Shown here piece by piece: positions 7,265 to 25,960 of a stretch of 64,000 bases of DNA. Under the pieces are notes generated by a model. That model saw only the letters and a program-made list of their open reading frames with translations, had not been told where the DNA came from and made no database searches. The stretch comes from an uncultured Nitrososphaeraceae archaeon (GTDB lineage Archaea > Thermoproteota > Nitrososphaeria > Nitrososphaerales > Nitrososphaeraceae), in contig CAVSMN010000011.1 in assembly GCA_963729045.1 (NCBI GenBank), positions 1 through 64,000 of the forward strand, read 5' to 3'. Each line of letters opens with the position of its first letter. Positions within the stretch are counted from its first letter, which is position 1. Position numbers and translations under genes: made by a program.

Positions 7265-7708
7265 TTATTGTTGTCCGACAGCGTTATTACCGGTATTGTT
7301 TTGACTTTGTGTGTTTGCATTGTTTCCTGAGCTGGAAGTGCTACCTCCAGAAACTACACCGCTATTTTGGTTAGAAGGTTGTGATTGGCCTATGCCTTGG
7401 TTGGCAGAGTTGCCGGTTTTACCTTTTCCGCTTCCGCTTCCGCTTCCACCTTGTTGTGCTAATGCATTGTTTCCGCTGTTTGTTTGACTTTGTGCATTCA
7501 AGTTATTACATGAAACTAAAGTTCCGGTTCCTGAGACACATAGTGCGTTTTGGTTAGAGGATTGTGATTGGCCTATGCCTTGGTTGGCAGAGTTGCCTTG
7601 AGCAATTATATTCACGGTCATGGAAGTTGGACCTAAAAGAAGTACAAATGATATTGCTATTACAGTTAAAGTCATTAAAGCTTTATTTATAAAAATGAAA
7701 TCTTTCAT
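7265..7708 (-). CDS. Secreted N/Q/S/G-rich repeat protein
   Basis: Signal peptide and two copies of GNSANQGIGQSQxSNQN; 36-bp exact repeat at 7379-7414 and 7562-7597. Confidence 0.85.
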   Translation of the reverse strand: MKDFIFINKALMTLTVIAISFVLLLGPTSMTVNIIAQGNSANQGIGQSQSSNQNALCVSGTGTLVSCNNLNAQSQTNSGNNALAQQGGSGSGSGKGKTGNSANQGIGQSQPSNQNSGVVSGGSTSSSGNNANTQSQNNTGNNAVGQQ

Positions 7709-7732
7709 TCAATGATTATTACTAACAAAAGG

Positions 7733-8409
7733 GGTCCTGTTAACTTAAGCGAAAATCATCTCCTTGTTATGATAACTGACAAATAGATTCATCCAATTTA
7801 AAACATGTTTTAGTTTACAGTTTTCCTTTCGACAAGGAAAGTAATCGTCAAAACTTTCAGTTCTATCCTTTATGTACTGCATAGTTCTTTCAATGATACT
7901 TTTCTCTAAAGAAGAATGTAGATGATGTTTTAATCCAAGAAACCTGCAAGCCATTGGGTACCAGGTTCCACCGTCGGTTGATAGAGGATGTTTTCCATGA
8001 ATCTTTACTACACCTGACAGAAACCTTTCTGCAATAAGCATGTTTCTCTCTTTAGATATGGTTAGTGCGAGAATTTCCTTGTTTTTTGGTTCTATCACAA
8101 TCCATAACCAAATATATTCTAAACCCACCTTAACTAATGTTTCATCAACTATGAATTCTGAGATCCTCTTTCTTTTAGATAATATCTTTTTAGGATGGTA
8201 TTTCTGAATCCACTTCCAGATTGTTACATGGCTTCTTTTGACCTTATTTAAAAAGAACATTGCTTTGGAAACACCTCTGGTTGACAAACCAAGAAAGTAC
8301 AAATACAGACTAGATTCTATGTACAATGGAGATGTTCTGTTTCTTTCACCAATCATGATTGAAATAGAGTATCTTTAAGCTATAGATTTATCGTTAAGTT
8401 AACAGGGCC
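7733..8409 (-). mobile_element. Complete IS6-family insertion sequence
   Basis: 16-bp terminal IRs (GGTCCTGTTAACTTAA 7733-7748 / TTAAGTTAACAGGGCC 8394-8409, 1 mismatch); 8-bp target duplication AACAAAAG at 7724-7731 and 8410-8417 (one extra G at 7732). Confidence 0.92.
7745..8356 (-). CDS. IS6-family DDE transposase
   Basis: SHVTIWKWIQKY, VDETLVKV..YIWLW, STDGG.WY, IERTMQYIKDR motifs. Confidence 0.93.
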   Translation of the reverse strand: MIGERNRTSPLYIESSLYLYFLGLSTRGVSKAMFFLNKVKRSHVTIWKWIQKYHPKKILSKRKRISEFIVDETLVKVGLEYIWLWIVIEPKNKEILALTISKERNMLIAERFLSGVVKIHGKHPLSTDGGTWYPMACRFLGLKHHLHSSLEKSIIERTMQYIKDRTESFDDYFPCRKENCKLKHVLNWMNLFVSYHNKEMIFA

Positions 8410-18597: not shown

Positions 18598-21500
18598 TTA
18601 ATAACTATCCATTGGTCTTACCGTCGGCTCATTATGCTTAGTCCACTCCAAAGTTTTCACGAATGAAATTGTACTTTCCACAGTCGTAAGAACCGGTACT
18701 CCCATTTCTACTGCTTTGCGTCGTATTTGATATTCATCATAAAGCATTCCAACATATTTTTCAATAGTGGATGTCGATGGTATGTTTACAATAAAATTAA
18801 TTTTCCTTTCAGTAAGGAGGGACAGTATATTTGGATGTCTTTCGGGTTCGCTAATTTTGTATACTAATTCCACATTCTTAATACCAGATTTCTTAAAATA
18901 TTCTGCAGTATGTTCAGTTGCTAATATTTTGAAACCTAACGCAGATATCAGTGAAACGATTGGAAGTAATTTTTCTTTGTTTTTGGTTCCTCCTATTGTA
19001 ATTAATGCTGCTCCTGTCAGTAGGTAAAGAATATCCTGCGGCCAGATATGATTTTGAAAGGGCATCATAAAATGAGTTCCCAAAACAGGCAACCTCCCCG
19101 GTTGACTGCATTTCTACTCCCAATACAATATCAGCTCCTTCCAACTGCATAAAAGAAAATTGTGGAACCTTGATTCCAAAGCCAGATTTCTTGAGCCAAT
19201 GTTCATTATCTATTGCTGGAAAATCATTGCCCAGAATGGATCCTGCCGCCAACTCGATTAGATTCAAGTCATAGAACTTTGATACAAAAGGCATTGAACG
19301 AGATGCCCTAACATTAGCTTCAATCACATAAACTTCATTATCCTTTACCAAGTATTGGATGTTCAGTGGACCTTTTACATTCAATGCTTTACCAATCTTA
19401 ACGGTATATTCAATTATGGTTTCCATTGTTTCCCGATTTAGTCGCCACGGGGGAATGCACATCATAGCATCACCTGAGTGGATTCCTGCGTTATCAATGT
19501 GCTCAATAATCGAACCGATTACAATTTCATTGGTGCCACCAATGGCATCAACTTCAACCTCTGACGCCTCTTCCAAAAATTTGCTTATTACTATTGGATA
19601 GTCAGGACTTACACTCGAAGCTTCCAAAATGAACTGCTCGAGTTGAGATTCACTCCAAATAACTTTCATGGCGGCACCACTTAAAACATATGACGGTCTT
19701 ACTAAGACAGGATATCCTTCTGTATTCGCAAATCTTTTAGATTCTTCCAAATTGGTAAACATTTTCCAAGGAGGCTGTTTTATTCCCAGCACATCTAATA
19801 AATGGCTAAATTTAGAACGATCCTCTGCATTATCCACGTCTTTACTGGACGTTCCTAGGATTTGGACATCATATTTACTCAATTTAGAAACTAGATTGTT
19901 TGCACTTTGTCCACCCACGCAAGCTACTAAACCTTTCGGATTCTCCTTTTCATATATATCTAGAACCCTTTCCAAAGTCAACTCTTCAAAGTATAATCTA
20001 TCCGGAACATCATAATCTGTGGAAACTGTTTCAGGGTTACAATTTATAATAGATATATTATTTACCCCATTCTTTCTTAGACCAAATACCATGTTGACAG
20101 TTGCCCAGTCAAATTCAACGCTACTCCCAATCCTGTATGGACCCGCTCCAAGGACTATTATAGACCGGTCTTCTTTAGCATTACCAAATGACAAGTCATC
20201 GGACTTGCCGTTGTATGTAAGGTACAAATAATTTGTTTTTGCAGGCCATTCAGCGGCCAAGGTATCAATTTGCTTTACTACAGGAGTTATTCCGAATTTT
20301 TTTCTAAACTCCCTAACTTGATCTTCTTGAAGATTCAAGCACCTACCAACTTGTTTATCAGAAAATCCTAGTTTTTTGGATTCTTCAATTAAATGTAAAT
20401 CAAATTTTGAATTTTTCAATTCATTCTCTTTGTCAATTACATTCTTGATTTTAATGAGAAACCAAGGATCAATAGATGAGAGTTTGTTTATCCTATCGAT
20501 ACTAAATCCAACCTTTATTGCTCTTACAACGTTGAAAATTATTTCATCGTCTGGGTGAATTAATGAGTATTCTATTTTTTCTATAACAGAGGTATCATGA
20601 TTAGCCTTTGAGTTTTCAATTTGTTTTGTTATGGATGCATATTCATCCTCATCCCCGTTATTTGCCACCAACCCGTCCTTGCCGATTTCACACATCCTGA
20701 TTGCTTTCTGTATAACTTCTTCAAAATTTTTCCCAATAGCCATCACTTCACCAACAGATTTCATCGCACTTCCCAATTTTCTTTTTACTAGCTCAAATTT
20801 CCTGAAATCCCATCGTGGCATTTTTACCACCATATAGTCCAATGCTGGCTCGAAACATGCTGAAGTCACTTTTGTGATTGTGTTTACAAGCTCAGGTAAC
20901 GTATATCCCAACCCTATTTTTGCTGCCATATATGCTAAGGGATAACCCGTGGCTTTGCTAGCGAGGGCCGATGATCGGGATAGGCGCGCATTAATTTCAA
21001 TAGCACAATATTCATCGGACGAAGGATTCAATCCGAATTGGATGTTACATTCTCCATTAATTTTACAATATGTTGTAGCTCTTAAGGCTGCGTCTCGCAG
21101 CATATGATATTCGCGATTATTCAGTGTTTGTGATGGGGCTACAACAATATTGTCTCCTGTATGGACTTTCATCCCCAAGACATTTTCCATATTGCAAATA
21201 ATCACGTTGTTTCCGACAGAGTCCCTCATTACCTCATATTCAATCTGCTTCCATTCTCCAACGTACTTTTCAATCAGAACCTGGTGAACCATACTCAGCG
21301 AAAGTCCTCGTTGAACTATTTCCTGCAAATCGTATTCATTATATGCCACACCACCTCCTCTTCCGCCTAGGGTATAGGCAACCCTTATTATCACAGGGAA
21401 GCCAATTTCCTTTGATACTCTCAGGGCTTCCTCATATGAATAAGCAGTAGCACTGTCAAGAACAGGAACGTTGCTTTTCACCATTGCATCCTTGAATTCC

Positions 21501-21917
21501 TGTCTATCTTCTGTTAACTTTATACCTTCAACTGAAGTATTTAGAACGTCGTACATCATATTTTCTAAGAACTTCACTTTCATATAGGTCGACTCCGCAG
21601 TTTAATGCAGTTTGACCACCAAAGCTTAGCATTATGGAATCAGGTCTTTCTATTTCGATAACCTGTTCAACAAAATTTCTATTTATTGGTAACAAATAAA
21701 CTTTGTCCGCAAATTTACTGTCTGTTTGAATAGTTGCAATGTTTGGATTAATTAAGACACTTGATATACCTTCCTCTTTCAAGGCCTTTAAGCATTGAGA
21801 ACCAGAGTAGTCGAAATGGCGGCCAGATATTTGATCTCAGCTTTCGCCCGCTTCTCCGATTTTTATTGCTCCGCTACCTAATACCAGGACCTTACGTATA
21901 TTCCTGTTTCGAGGCAT
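18598..21917 (-). CDS. carB: Carbamoyl-phosphate synthase large subunit; exon 1 21843-21917, candidate intron 21816-21842, 1-nt frameshifts at ~21552 and ~19021
   Basis: [64 protein letters not shown], second ATP-grasp half, C-terminal MGS domain. Confidence 0.95.
21816..21842 (-). other. Candidate bulge-helix-bulge mRNA intron (27 nt) in carB
   Basis: Insert AGCUGAGAUCAAAUAUCUGGCCGCCAU has an in-frame UGA. 4-bp helix GGCG/CGCC with bulges AAA and AUU; cutting after the 2nd bulge base rejoins GAA|UUC. Confidence 0.85.
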
Positions 21918-21983
21918 TAATTTTCATCACAAATGACATTTTAACTAAAATTATGAACATTCGGAATTAAATTTATATCTTTT

Positions 21984-23144
21984 CTATGGTGCCACGATTC
22001 CATACGTTTTTACTAGATCTTTGAACTTATCAAAGACATATAAGCAGTCGTCAGGACCAGGTGAGGCTTCAGGATGAAACTGTACCGCTATAATTGGCTT
22101 CTCCCTGTGTTTTATGCCTTCGATTGTCTTATCATCTGTATTCTTGAACCATACCTCAAAATCAGTTTTGTCCAGACTCTCTGACTCGATTCCATATCCA
22201 TGGTTTTGACTAGTTATTATGGTATGATCAGAAACCAAGTCCAGACAGCTTTTGTTTTGACCCCTGTGTCCAAATTTTAACTTGTGTGTTTTAGCGCCTC
22301 CAGCCAAAGCGAGAATTTGGTTGCCTAAACATATTCCTAGAGTAGGGATGGATCTTTCAATTAGCTCAGAAGCAGTCTCTATAGTATCCTTACAAACAAT
22401 CGGATCCCCAGGGCCGTTGCTCAAAACCACACCGGTTGGGTTATGCAGCATTACTTGATCGATTGAAGAGTCCCAAGGCATCCTTATTACTTGGAATCCA
22501 ATTCTTAAAAGATTTCTAATAATGCTATATTTAGTACCGGTATCAATTAATACGATTTTTGGAGATGACTCTTTTCCATAATAAATGGGCTTACTAATTG
22601 AAACCTCAGGCATAAAATTATATGAATCGTAATCAAAACTTTCATCATTCTGGCTTTCAGACTTATCCATTACAATTTTAGCATTCATGACACCATTCGA
22701 TCTAATCTTTTTTGTTAACTCTCTGGTATCCACATCGCAAACCCCTGGAATTTTCTCATCAAACAGCCATTGATCTAGAGTCCTCTCACAGGACCAGTGA
22801 CTTGAGACATTTGACAAATTATTAACTATCAGGCCTCTTATTTGAATTCTCTCAGATTCAAAATATTTTGGTAAGCCAAAATCGTCTAGTTCCTTCTGAG
22901 ATGGAACGCCATAATTACCAATAGAAGGATATGTAAAGCATAATATTTGCCCTCTATATGATGGGTCGGTAAGTGTTTCGGTATAACCGACCATACCAGT
23001 ATTGAACACTATTTCTCCAGACACACTTGTTGGAAAACCAAATCCTTTGCCTTCAAAAATAGAACCATCATCAAGAATAAGTTTTGCTTTATAATCTGTA
23101 ATTCTGTTTAAAAGAGTCGGAATTTTTTGTCCCTCACAAATCAA
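21984..23144 (-). CDS. carA: Carbamoyl-phosphate synthase small subunit
   Basis: GEIVFNTGMVGY..TDPSY, SNGPGDP, GICLGNQ, QFHPE. Confidence 0.97.
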   Translation of the reverse strand: MICEGQKIPTLLNRITDYKAKLILDDGSIFEGKGFGFPTSVSGEIVFNTGMVGYTETLTDPSYRGQILCFTYPSIGNYGVPSQKELDDFGLPKYFESERIQIRGLIVNNLSNVSSHWSCERTLDQWLFDEKIPGVCDVDTRELTKKIRSNGVMNAKIVMDKSESQNDESFDYDSYNFMPEVSISKPIYYGKESSPKIVLIDTGTKYSIIRNLLRIGFQVIRMPWDSSIDQVMLHNPTGVVLSNGPGDPIVCKDTIETASELIERSIPTLGICLGNQILALAGGAKTHKLKFGHRGQNKSCLDLVSDHTIITSQNHGYGIESESLDKTDFEVWFKNTDDKTIEGIKHREKPIIAVQFHPEASPGPDDCLYVFDKFKDLVKTYGIVAP

Positions 23145-23181
23145 AAATTAAAATCATTTATAAATTTTTGTAAATAATTTT

Positions 23182-24426
23182 TTAGCAACTAATCCCCTTA
23201 CTATAATCATATTCCCTATCTCTCCACTTTATCTTTGCATGTTTTTCTGAGGTCAATATAGACCAAATAAATGAAAGAGATACAACAAAACAACCAATTG
23301 GGGCGCCTAAAAAGTAAACCACTTTATGTGTACTGGCTTTTTTCAATTGATAAAAGTTTGTCATATATATACTTAGTATGCTCAAAATTGTAATCAACAT
23401 CAAAATATTATAGGACAGATCTTGATCTGCAAGGTGGACATAGTAAGCAGCTGAACAATATGTGAGAACAATGAATGGAAAAGGCATTAAGAAAAATATC
23501 CCGATGGTCATTAGGATCGAGTTTAACCGGTCAGTAAAGTATAAAGGAATAATCAATCTTTTCAAAGAATTCCACAGGGTGTTAAAATCACGTGCCCAGT
23601 AGGCTTCTAATAAATTTTCACCACGGAACATTTTTAAATTATATCCTTCTTCCTTCAATTTTTTACCTAAAGCTCCGTCTTCAACTATTTCTGATTTGAC
23701 AATAGCATGGGTGCCAACGCTTTCATAGCATTCTCGAGTTATTACGAAAAAGCTTCCAAACAGATATCCAATACTAACATTAGGATCATTTACTCTCATC
23801 GGAGAGTATCTAGAAAACATGAAAACTGATAGTATAGGTAATACCATTTTTACAATCAAATTTGGGTATTTCAAGTTTGGGACTGCTGTAATAACATCCA
23901 ACTTTTGCTTAATCAGCGTACATAATGAATCCCGAACACTTCTGTTTGAATGAATCGTATCAGCGTCGGTAAACATCAGATATTTGCCTTTTGAATTTTG
24001 ATATCCAACGTAACATGGCCAGTTTTTTCCAACCCAACCTGATGGCTTGTCACCTGCTTTGAATATTCTAACCCTAGAGTCTTTACTAAAATTCTCCATC
24101 AAGCCAAATGTAGAATCGGTTGAGTTATCATCTACAAGTAATAGCTCATAGTTTTTAATGTTTTGATCGAGAAGACTTTGAATACATTTATTAATATATT
24201 TTTCTTCGTTTCTAGCAGGTATAATCACACTGATTAATTCCCCCTCTAAATCTAAAGTATCATCCGAGTAGATTTTTGGGGATAATTCAAATGATCTTCT
24301 CAGCACAGAAAAAAGATAAATCCATATTCCAAACGAGCCTATTATAATTACGACTAATAATAAGTTAACAATTACGGAGATTTCCACCATTGAATCAAAT
24401 TTCAAGTTGACATATAAATATAACAC
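23182..24426 (-). CDS. Family 2 glycosyltransferase with TM helices (CrtQ/HpnB-like)
   Basis: IIPARNEE, VDDNSTD, GWVGKNW, FTDAD, ED; true start probably ~24390. Confidence 0.9.
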   Translation of the reverse strand: MLYLYVNLKFDSMVEISVIVNLLLVVIIIGSFGIWIYLFSVLRRSFELSPKIYSDDTLDLEGELISVIIPARNEEKYINKCIQSLLDQNIKNYELLLVDDNSTDSTFGLMENFSKDSRVRIFKAGDKPSGWVGKNWPCYVGYQNSKGKYLMFTDADTIHSNRSVRDSLCTLIKQKLDVITAVPNLKYPNLIVKMVLPILSVFMFSRYSPMRVNDPNVSIGYLFGSFFVITRECYESVGTHAIVKSEIVEDGALGKKLKEEGYNLKMFRGENLLEAYWARDFNTLWNSLKRLIIPLYFTDRLNSILMTIGIFFLMPFPFIVLTYCSAAYYVHLADQDLSYNILMLITILSILSIYMTNFYQLKKASTHKVVYFLGAPIGCFVVSLSFIWSILTSEKHAKIKWRDREYDYSKGISC

Positions 24427-24483: not shown

Positions 24484-25960
24484 ATGCTTAGAAAAATTAA
24501 GATCGATAAACATACATTTAGTTTATTTTTCCTTGTAATTTCCACATTCTTACTATCTCAAAGTTACAGTGCAGCAATTTCATTTGCTCAAACAGAACCA
24601 GGCTCGGCTTCTGGAGTAACACAAAGTCCAGCACAATCAATACTCGTTTGCGAGTTTGTGCAATATTGTTCCAATCCGGTGGAATTGATACAAATGTTAA
24701 TGACACAGCAGCTACTACCTACGGTTACACCTGAGACTGAAGCTCAAACACACTGAGCAGAGACTGAAGCTCAAACACCGGCAGAGACTGAAGCTCAAAC
24801 ACCACTGATTCATCAGAGCTTTTGCCAGATGTCACATCAAATATTTCATTGATAATGACCCCAGATTTGCCAGGTAATTTGGCAGAAGATTCTCAAGACT
24901 CAGTTAATCAAGATTTATTGGCCGCTAATGAAACCCAACTGGTCTCATCAAACGCTACGGAGGATAGTCAATTAGTAGTCCCTGAAAATGCGACAGTAAT
25001 TACACCGGACGCTCAAATCCCATTTGAAACCGCAAGTGAAAACATGTCAATGACAATTCAAGATAATAATGGTACTACCACTCCCGGTAGTAGTTCATCT
25101 AATCAAAGTGAGTTAGCAAATACAGTTCCACTCAATAATGTAACAATGTCTATTGACGGCAGTAATATGTCTCAAAGTGCCCCTGTTGATGAAACCATTG
25201 ATACAACAGGTGCAAATGAAACCATTGATACAACAGGTGCAAATGAAACCATTGATACAACAGGTGCAAATGAAACCATTGATACAACAGGTGCAAATGA
25301 AACCATTGATACAACAGGTGCAAATGAAACCATTGATACAACAGGTGCAAATGAAACCATTGATACAACAGGTGCAAATGAAACCATTGATACAACAGGT
25401 GCAAATGAAACCATTGATACAACAGGTGCAAATGAAACCATTGATACAACAGGTGCAAATGAAACCATTGATACAACAGGTGCAAATGAAACCATTGATA
25501 CAACAGGTGCAAATGAAACCATTGATACAACAGGTGCAAATGAGACTATGGATACAACAGAGCAAAGAGACTATGGTACAACAGCAAACTAGACTATGGG
25601 TACAACAGCTGCAAACGAGACTATGGATACAGCAGCAAACGAGAATGGGTACAACAGCAGCAAACGAGACTATGGGTACAACAGCAGCAAACGAGACTAT
25701 GGGTACAACAGCAGCAAATGAGACTATGGATACAGCAAACGAGAATGTACAAATAGAAATGCCATTGGGAATGAAAATCAGAGCATACATCAAATGAAAC
25801 CATTAGCCCAGCAAATACAAATGTAAATCAACAAGATAACACATCAAATGGAAATCAGGTTCAGCCTAATTCTAGCCCAACTTCTGAAAATCAAACCGCT
25901 CCACCCTTCTTCTTAGATCCCCTAATTAACCCATTTAAGGAACTTTTTGGAATTAAATAA
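24484..25960 (+). CDS. Secreted T/N/E-rich tandem-repeat glycoprotein, several frameshifts
   Basis: Signal peptide at 24484; ETEAQTP and ANETIDTTG repeats; final frame ends PFFLDPLINPFKELFGIK* at 25960. Confidence 0.75.
24730..24805 (+). repeat. ~24-bp tandem repeat, 3 copies (GAGACTGAAGCTCAAACAC core)
   Basis: Seen directly; encodes ETEAQTP. Confidence 0.85.
25189..25539 (+). repeat. 27-bp perfect tandem repeat x13 (ATGAAACCATTGATACAACAGGTGCAA), degenerate copies continue to ~25745
   Basis: Seen directly; coding repeat with no spacers. Confidence 0.97.

Follow-up and report, generated by a model that had tools for sequence, protein, structure and literature searches.

A short insert interrupting carB, the only gene for the carbamoyl-phosphate synthase large subunit in the genome, was analysed in a 64,000-nucleotide (nt) stretch of DNA (the window) from an uncultured ammonia-oxidising Nitrososphaeraceae archaeon (contig CAVSMN010000011.1 of assembly GCA_963729045.1, genome G000 below), whose genus is Ca. 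Nitrosocosmicus by its nearest named records. The insert is real and conserved and is very probably spliced out in RNA, and we have little doubt that it is an old mRNA intron of the bulge-helix-bulge (BHB) type, of the kind found in cbf5. With equally high likelihood, the cuts of the tRNA splicing endonuclease EndA would fall behind the second base of each bulge, and the exons would then be ligated by RtcB. An EndA-type intron is favoured because the inserts are variable and break the reading frame, the helices covary, removal in RNA is precise and the cognate enzymes are encoded in the genome; EndA and RtcB as the agents, and splicing in the G000 organism itself, we infer.

The carB insert and its distribution

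The insert separates codon 25 (GAA, Glu) from codon 26 (TTC, Phe) of carB. The features concerned are, in window positions:

21842..21816, minus strand: insert (intron), 27 nt in the G000 assembly, 26 nt in close relatives
21843..21917, minus strand: carB exon 1, codons 1-25, ATG at 21917; PRK05294 positions 1-25
18598..21815, minus strand: carB exon 2, beginning at Phe26; +1 shifts in the assembly near 21550 and 19017
21984..23144, minus strand: carA, directly upstream of carB; matches TIGR01368 above the cut-off

Left in place, the insert brings the frame to a stop after 26 residues. The match to the CarB profile PRK05294 runs over positions 1-25 in exon 1 and resumes at position 26 in exon 2, so the exons abut exactly where a previous examination of the letters alone (the sequence-only reading) had placed the split of the conserved motif GE|FDYSG. 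Removal of the insert in silico gives 110 stop-free codons, of which 83 are identical to those of the intronless locus L094. Exon 1 is conserved at the protein level to a degree comparable with intronless relatives. Of 138 intron loci, 135 have an open exon 2, and in the related genome G022 it is open for 1071 codons. Since unspliced RNA yields the 26-residue peptide only, synthesis of CarB depends on splicing. The wider proposal of the sequence-only reading, that pyrimidine and arginine synthesis depends on tRNA splicing, thus follows logically as regards CarB but does not extend across the order, where 99 of the 262 scorable genomes are intronless.

In the genus, the insert was found in all 33 scorable genomes of the 34 examined. 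A set of 130 loci, duplicates included, comprises 118 with an insert of 17-52 nt, 11 without and one incomplete. The order-level sample contained 301 Nitrososphaerales genomes, of which 262 could be scored at the carB site; the insert is present in 163 of these, although the related genomes are kin and not independent, and this and all other site counts overstate the support. By family, it occurs in 67 of 72 scorable genomes of f1, 9 of 9 of f4, 34 of 50 of f10, 46 of 76 of f13 and 2 of 4 of f14, and in none of the scorable genomes of f7, f9, f12, f15, f18, f19, f5 and f16. Genus g34 is mixed, with carriers (8 of 32 listed genomes) beside congeners lacking the intron. The number of matches per carrier was the same in the search for scorable sites and in the search for inserts, and therefore no carrier of the order sample has a second, intronless carB fitting the search pattern. 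Identical introns of 21 or 22 nt were also observed in families f13 and f10 in many species of several genera, with congeners lacking them.

Outside the order, two of 200 scorable genomes of the phylum (G453 and G459) have an insert at the same site; three of the five matches there (G346, G367 and G470) were discarded as chance upstream matches. A metagenome scan added at least 19 true same-site inserts among the 120 matches listed, in distant and unclassified carB lineages, the other 101 listed not being carB inserts; L237 was excluded from this distant-site set on account of its Ns.

These data bear on whether the insert could be an assembly artefact or the mark of a decaying pseudogene, which we consider extremely improbable. 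The window does contain many 1-nt indels, with two more in carB, and the near-identical database protein P0055 shares two of the shifts; an artefact is contradicted by the same site being occupied in 163 genomes from independent assemblies and by a gap-free contig of run X19 (see below), and a pseudogene by the open exon 2 in 135 of 138 loci and by the single copy of carB in G000. The sequence-only reading had already judged the insert hard to explain as a sequencing artefact, and the second intact carB that it regarded as a possible sign of decay is absent.

One letter of the insert is nevertheless doubtful. The G at 21838 is visible as an extra base against L002, L003 and L012, and is missing from the 97.7%-identical locus L002 and from ten further close loci. 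Without it the hairpin has seven perfect base pairs (bp) and the stop at the same codon is UAG instead of UGA in nine of the 11 close loci. The absence of this G from eleven close loci and the abundance of 1-nt indels in the window (37 isolated ones in 48.5 kb against G022) make 26 nt the probable true length and the G a probable assembly error. The site and the 26-residue unspliced product given by the sequence-only reading therefore stand, whereas its 27 nt and UGA probably do not. Against the shorter length, the insert is also 27 nt long in P0055, which shows the downstream frameshift as well. The carB of G000 has two further +1 shifts with respect to G022, near 21550 and 19017; the shifts shared with P0055 are either systematic errors or real changes of this lineage. 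In the same comparison (loci L002, L167 and L183), positions 19500-24300 of the window are 97-99% identical to G022 over about 5 kb, against about 91% elsewhere, a tract that spans the 5' part of carB, the intron, carA and the next gene and may reflect a recent recombination.

Predicted fold and covariation at the proposed splice sites

The elements of the predicted fold are listed below; structure statistics refer to 101 distinct intron sites, with 10 intronless sites for comparison.

21845..21848, minus strand: central 4-bp helix, exon-1 strand GGCG; pairs 2-4 in 101/101 sites, pair 1 in 83/101
21818..21821, minus strand: central helix, intron strand CGCC, pairing with exon-1 GGCG
21842..21844, minus strand: 5' 3-nt bulge AA|A, predicted cut between 21843 and 21842
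21822..21841, minus strand: intron hairpin (h'), containing the doubtful G at 21838
21815..21817, minus strand: 3' splice site AU|U, a relaxed internal loop, predicted cut between 21816 and 21815
21854..21860, minus strand: distal exon-exon stem, exon-1 strand, from pairing across intron sites
21801..21807, minus strand: distal exon-exon stem, exon-2 strand, from folds and pairing across sites

None of the 101 inserts is both in frame and free of stops, 25 being in frame with a stop and 76 shifting the frame. The 5' bulge reads AA|A in 83 sites, AG|A in 13, AA|T in four and AG|T in one. Pairs 1-3 of the intron hairpin are kept in 100, 101 and 100 sites respectively, with T-A/C-G swaps, and the hairpin pairing reaches 97.8% in the true register versus 2-53% in slid registers. 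Moreover, an exon GGT is matched by an intron CAC in two sites, a covariation between exon and intron. At the 3' site, outer pair 1 is possible in 90 of the 101 sites and pair 2 is always mismatched, with C against C or U. On these alignments the motif is of the relaxed HBh' or bulge-helix-loop (BHL) form, as the sequence-only reading had it, and the same-site inserts with covarying stems that it proposed to look for among relatives are present. Its fold holds in the helices that covary across the 101 sites, the hairpin probably carrying one base too many.

The distal stem provides a comparison between carriers and non-carriers. At six of its seven positions, pairing holds in 100 or more of the 101 intron sites, and at the seventh in 87, while the same seven positions pair in 2-10 of the 10 intronless sites. 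Gly24 is encoded by GGC in 98 of 101 intron sites versus one of 10 intronless ones. In a comparison of 120 intron-bearing with 22 intronless distinct sites, synonymous differences per codon amount to 0.27 with the intron and 0.57 without it in exon codons 19-25, and to 0.54 in both groups in codons 9-18, outside the stem. By this measure, constraint on the exon codons of the stem is confined to intron-bearing sites. The 18 distinct distant sites have helices of the GCCG/CGGC, GCGG/CCGC or GGCG type, with pairs 2-4 in 18 of 18 and pair 1 in 14 of 18, and none of their inserts is in frame and stop-free.

In the mechanism that we propose, exon-1 GGCG of the carB pre-mRNA would pair with the 3' end of the intron, so that the 5' site forms a canonical 3-nt bulge and the 3' site a relaxed loop, and the distal exon-exon stem would hold the fold. 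An (alpha-beta)2 EndA with the Crenarchaea-specific loop would then cut after nucleotide 2 of each bulge, and ligation by RtcB would restore Glu25-Phe26 of the invariant motif. The junction GAA|UUC that the sequence-only reading derived from this cut rule restores the frame and agrees with the RNA contig described below. Removal by self-splicing or by an enzyme other than EndA appears very unlikely. The relaxed 3' site and the fact that EndA cleavage is a prediction leave room for another enzyme, but both junctions fit the EndA rule; as for self-splicing, inserts of 17-52 nt are too small to be ribozymes, and Rfam gave no match near threshold (no relevant one for the insert at E<=5). A group I or group II intron, which needs a catalytic core of hundreds of bases, was rejected on the same grounds.

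A genome-wide HBh' scan of G000 returned 2461 motifs, 69 of them joining open reading frames (ORFs), and the carB site ranked first of the 69, with filters that were narrow and partly modelled on that site. No second convincing coding intron emerged from these narrow filters in an assembly bearing indels.

RNA evidence and splicing machinery

Four of the 24 runs listed for the close relative L012 were compared at the junction. A 621-nt contig of depth 6 from a soil metatranscriptome (X1) spans positions 1129-1775 of L012 without exactly 1717-1742, the intron. It is 99.4% identical to the relative, with four other letters differing, it has 33 nt on the short side of the junction and zero microhomology, and it makes up all the depth at the junction. 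The precise removal that the sequence-only reading proposed to look for, here of 26 nt, is therefore observed in one contig of a close relative, not in G000. Run X19, whose type is not on record, contains the insert in one gap-free contig that shares two of the four differences of the X1 contig from L012. Loose ends in X1 and X11, from more distant strains that are hard to distinguish from intronless ones, run from exon 1 to exon 2. The one in X11 equals, by eye, the exon-2 30-mer of the carriers L088, L092/L095 and L100, and is weak because it is near-identical to the intronless L094, from which it differs by two bases. Three RNA contigs from two studies end at 1746, which is a weak hint.

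It is conceivable, with very low probability, that the insert stays in the mRNA and that CarB is made by ribosomal bypassing or by a downstream restart, the RNA contig coming from an intronless strain or a skip during reverse transcription. Translational bypass with matched take-off and landing codons is known from T4 gene 60. A stop codon and a hairpin do follow immediately after codon 25, gene callers do place the CarB start downstream, and there is a single RNA contig. However, in none of the 101 sites does the insert end in a triplet matching the Glu take-off codon, its base at -3 being C, T or A and never G, and exon 1 is conserved as protein. This reading is also opposed by the lack of any intronless copy among the 33 genomes of the genus, by a junction that lacks microhomology and obeys the bulge cut rule, and by the covariation of the exon-intron helix.

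For the preferred alternative, excision by EndA, the machinery is present: G000 encodes two EndA paralogues (alpha and beta) and a full-length RtcB. The catalytic alpha subunit is split in the assembly by a 1-nt frameshift, located at about 288450-288950 of G000:C12 (L131), just after the specificity loop, and probably an assembly error. When its N-terminal piece is aligned with solved EndA chains, a loop lysine falls opposite residue 44 of 3ajv_B, a chain that we take to be Aeropyrum pernix EndA. According to PMC5829648, relaxed HBh' and BHL motifs can be cleaved thanks to the Crenarchaea-specific loop and K44, and the specificity loop is conserved across TACK. This agrees with the statement of the sequence-only reading that heteromeric TACK-type enzymes accept relaxed motifs.

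Several points weigh against an EndA-spliced intron in carB. The motif is not a strict hBHBh', which has an outer helix directly on a 3-nt 3' bulge, since the 3' site is never a strict bulge, and pair 1 of the central helix is G x A in 18 of the 101 sites. The fold of the window taken alone lies within chance (z -1.61, with 18 of 200 shuffles folding as well), the support for the fold coming from comparison and not from single-sequence folding. The spliced RNA is one assembled contig from one study, of a relative and without a matched DNA run, and an intronless sister strain is a possible source, given the two places at which the X1 contig and X19 disagree; run X8 has zero cover at the junction and X11 zero close-strain cover. 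Finally, the carB and EndA alpha genes of G000 are frameshifted elsewhere in the assembly, so that decay of this carB copy is possible, and P0055 has two of the carB shifts in common with G000, including the one near 21550.

The intron also affects annotation. In seven of the 120 database fragments listed (P0003, P0005, P0007, P0010, P0011, P0020 and P0068), one of them named MCC2647889.1 at NCBI, CarB begins with a false N-terminus translated across the insert in a different frame; P0055 is an eighth case but crosses it in frame, and others have their start downstream of it. The mis-start of CarB in intron carriers is a systematic annotation error. No contiguous CarB from the genus is present among the database proteins listed. 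Three contiguous CarB proteins (P0063, P0021 and P0006), whose molecule type is not on record, are 90-92% like carriers versus 73-77% like intronless loci. Elsewhere in the window, an ORF at 24822-25592 contains a 10-residue tandem repeat in about 14 copies, the opposite strand also being open, and a repeated element at about 7700-8400, with many 70-78% copies in G022, is possibly an insertion sequence.

Origin and significance of the intron

The carA gene lies directly upstream of carB in 102 of 105 carrier loci, and the Nitrososphaerales copies have no LAGLIDADG gene as a neighbour. In distant archaea, LAGLIDADG-like ORFs were identified between carA and the intron-bearing carB:

L214:1441-2448: LAGLIDADG-like ORF, between carA and carB
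L234:1218-2447: LAGLIDADG-like ORF, between carA and carB
L236:1103-2398: LAGLIDADG-like ORF, between carA and carB

Such an ORF stands beside carB, outside the intron, in three of the 12 distant loci with flanks. The profile scan, limited to these three ORFs, gave LAGLIDADG_3 matches with E values of 2e-4, 1.8e-7 and 5e-5, of which only one passes the Pfam cut-off, a point against the association. In a separate check of nine loci by an ORF listing and a simple motif, no homing-endonuclease-like ORF appeared beside the site. The ORF map of the window shows no homing-endonuclease gene between carA and carB, and the 87%-complete G000 has zero LAGLIDADG_3 match. A promoter scan remained at chance level, with a bacterial-type consensus applied to an archaeal host.

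In a CarB tree of 91 rows, the intronless rows are nested among carriers, with six changes, four of them forced by starred branches, a pattern consistent with an ancient intron that was precisely lost several times. The DNA tree of carB from 25 genomes of family f13 (L154 was omitted as too short) has three changes, one forced by starred branches, and lateral spread within f13 appears unsupported by it. We give about an even chance to the intron having spread with a freestanding LAGLIDADG gene that was later lost in Nitrososphaerales. There, with the endonuclease gone, the intron would be vertically inherited with repeated precise losses, and would persist because any deletion short of an exact one damages CarB. 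A broader idea, to which we incline slightly less than evenly, is that archaea host a widespread and so far overlooked class of mobile mRNA mini-introns, in which a BHB hairpin placed in an invariant codon pair shields an essential gene from a neighbouring freestanding LAGLIDADG endonuclease and the pair homes between phyla, carB being an orphaned relic.

The intron could alternatively be kept as a regulator, its splicing efficiency tuning carbamoyl-phosphate synthase and thereby linking pyrimidine and arginine synthesis to tRNA-processing capacity. Its maintenance in 67 of the 72 scorable f1 genomes without a neighbouring endonuclease would be explained in this way, and negative regulation has been proposed for the cbf5 intron (PMC2738675). 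We regard such a role as unlikely, given the 99 of 262 scorable genomes without the intron, congeners in g34 included, the at least four changes forced on the CarB tree, and X1, which has no unspliced contig, although contigs drop rare forms.

The cbf5 intron is reportedly also the subject of Watanabe 2002 and Yoshinari 2006, and a book chapter by Brugger et al. 2006 is said to predict introns in other coding genes. In Desulfurococcales and Sulfolobales, the cbf5 intron measures 16-44 nt (Yokobori 2009, PMC2738675), against 17-52 nt for carB. Both lie within a coding sequence at an invariant motif, in hosts with a hetero-oligomeric EndA, both have a relaxed BHB, most cbf5 introns examined also failing strict hBHBh', and both show lineage-specific precise losses and were overlooked by annotation (PMC2738675). 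In contrast, cbf5 is an RNA-modifying host gene interrupted inside the catalytic Asp codon (PMC2738675), whereas the carB intron lies between codons of a core metabolic enzyme; it occurs in Nitrososphaerales, which are mesophilic, and in distant archaea here and there, in some cases next to a freestanding LAGLIDADG gene, and its cleavage by EndA is predicted. The HVO_1309 intron of Haloferax volcanii is likewise an mRNA substrate of the tRNA splicing endonuclease, as predicted for carB, but lies in the 5' untranslated region (UTR) and is cut by a homodimeric enzyme, whereas that of carB breaks the frame (PMC7714728, PMC10485636). Non-canonical HBh'/BHL tRNA introns cut by (alpha-beta)2 EndA share the motif geometry and enzyme type, the carB substrate being an mRNA instead (PMC5829648, PMC12397907). 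Archaeal rRNA BHB introns are also tied to LAGLIDADG-type genes, which they encode within themselves, whereas the carB intron is a mini hairpin with its associated ORF outside, between carA and carB (PMC6125680).

According to a 2023 review, two archaeal mRNAs are known to be substrates of the tRNA endonuclease, of which cbf5 alone is interrupted within the coding sequence, and further cases are to be expected (PMC10485636); in the text available, PMC7714728 and PMC10485636 name only cbf5 and the HVO_1309 5'-UTR intron. No carB intron was found in the literature searched, most subscription papers and supplements being outside its reach, nor by term look-up in the available text of PMC3082918, PMC12397907, PMC6125680 and bioRxiv 10.64898/2026.10.13.758758, in keeping with the sequence-only reading, which knew of no report. 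The carB intron adds to a kind known inside coding sequence from one gene, cbf5.

With it, carB would be among the very few archaeal protein-coding genes that need splicing. The addition would be a gene of core metabolism, with the intron present in the majority of soil and in many marine or freshwater ammonia-oxidising archaea. The origin of archaeal mRNA introns has been called unclear (PMC2738675), and a testable proposal for it comes from the endonuclease genes next to carB in distant archaea; in cultured mesophilic hosts, splicing, its regulation and intron loss would be open to experiment. If intron and endonuclease did form a mobile pair, carbamoyl-phosphate synthesis in abundant nitrifiers would require tRNA splicing and might also be tuned by it.
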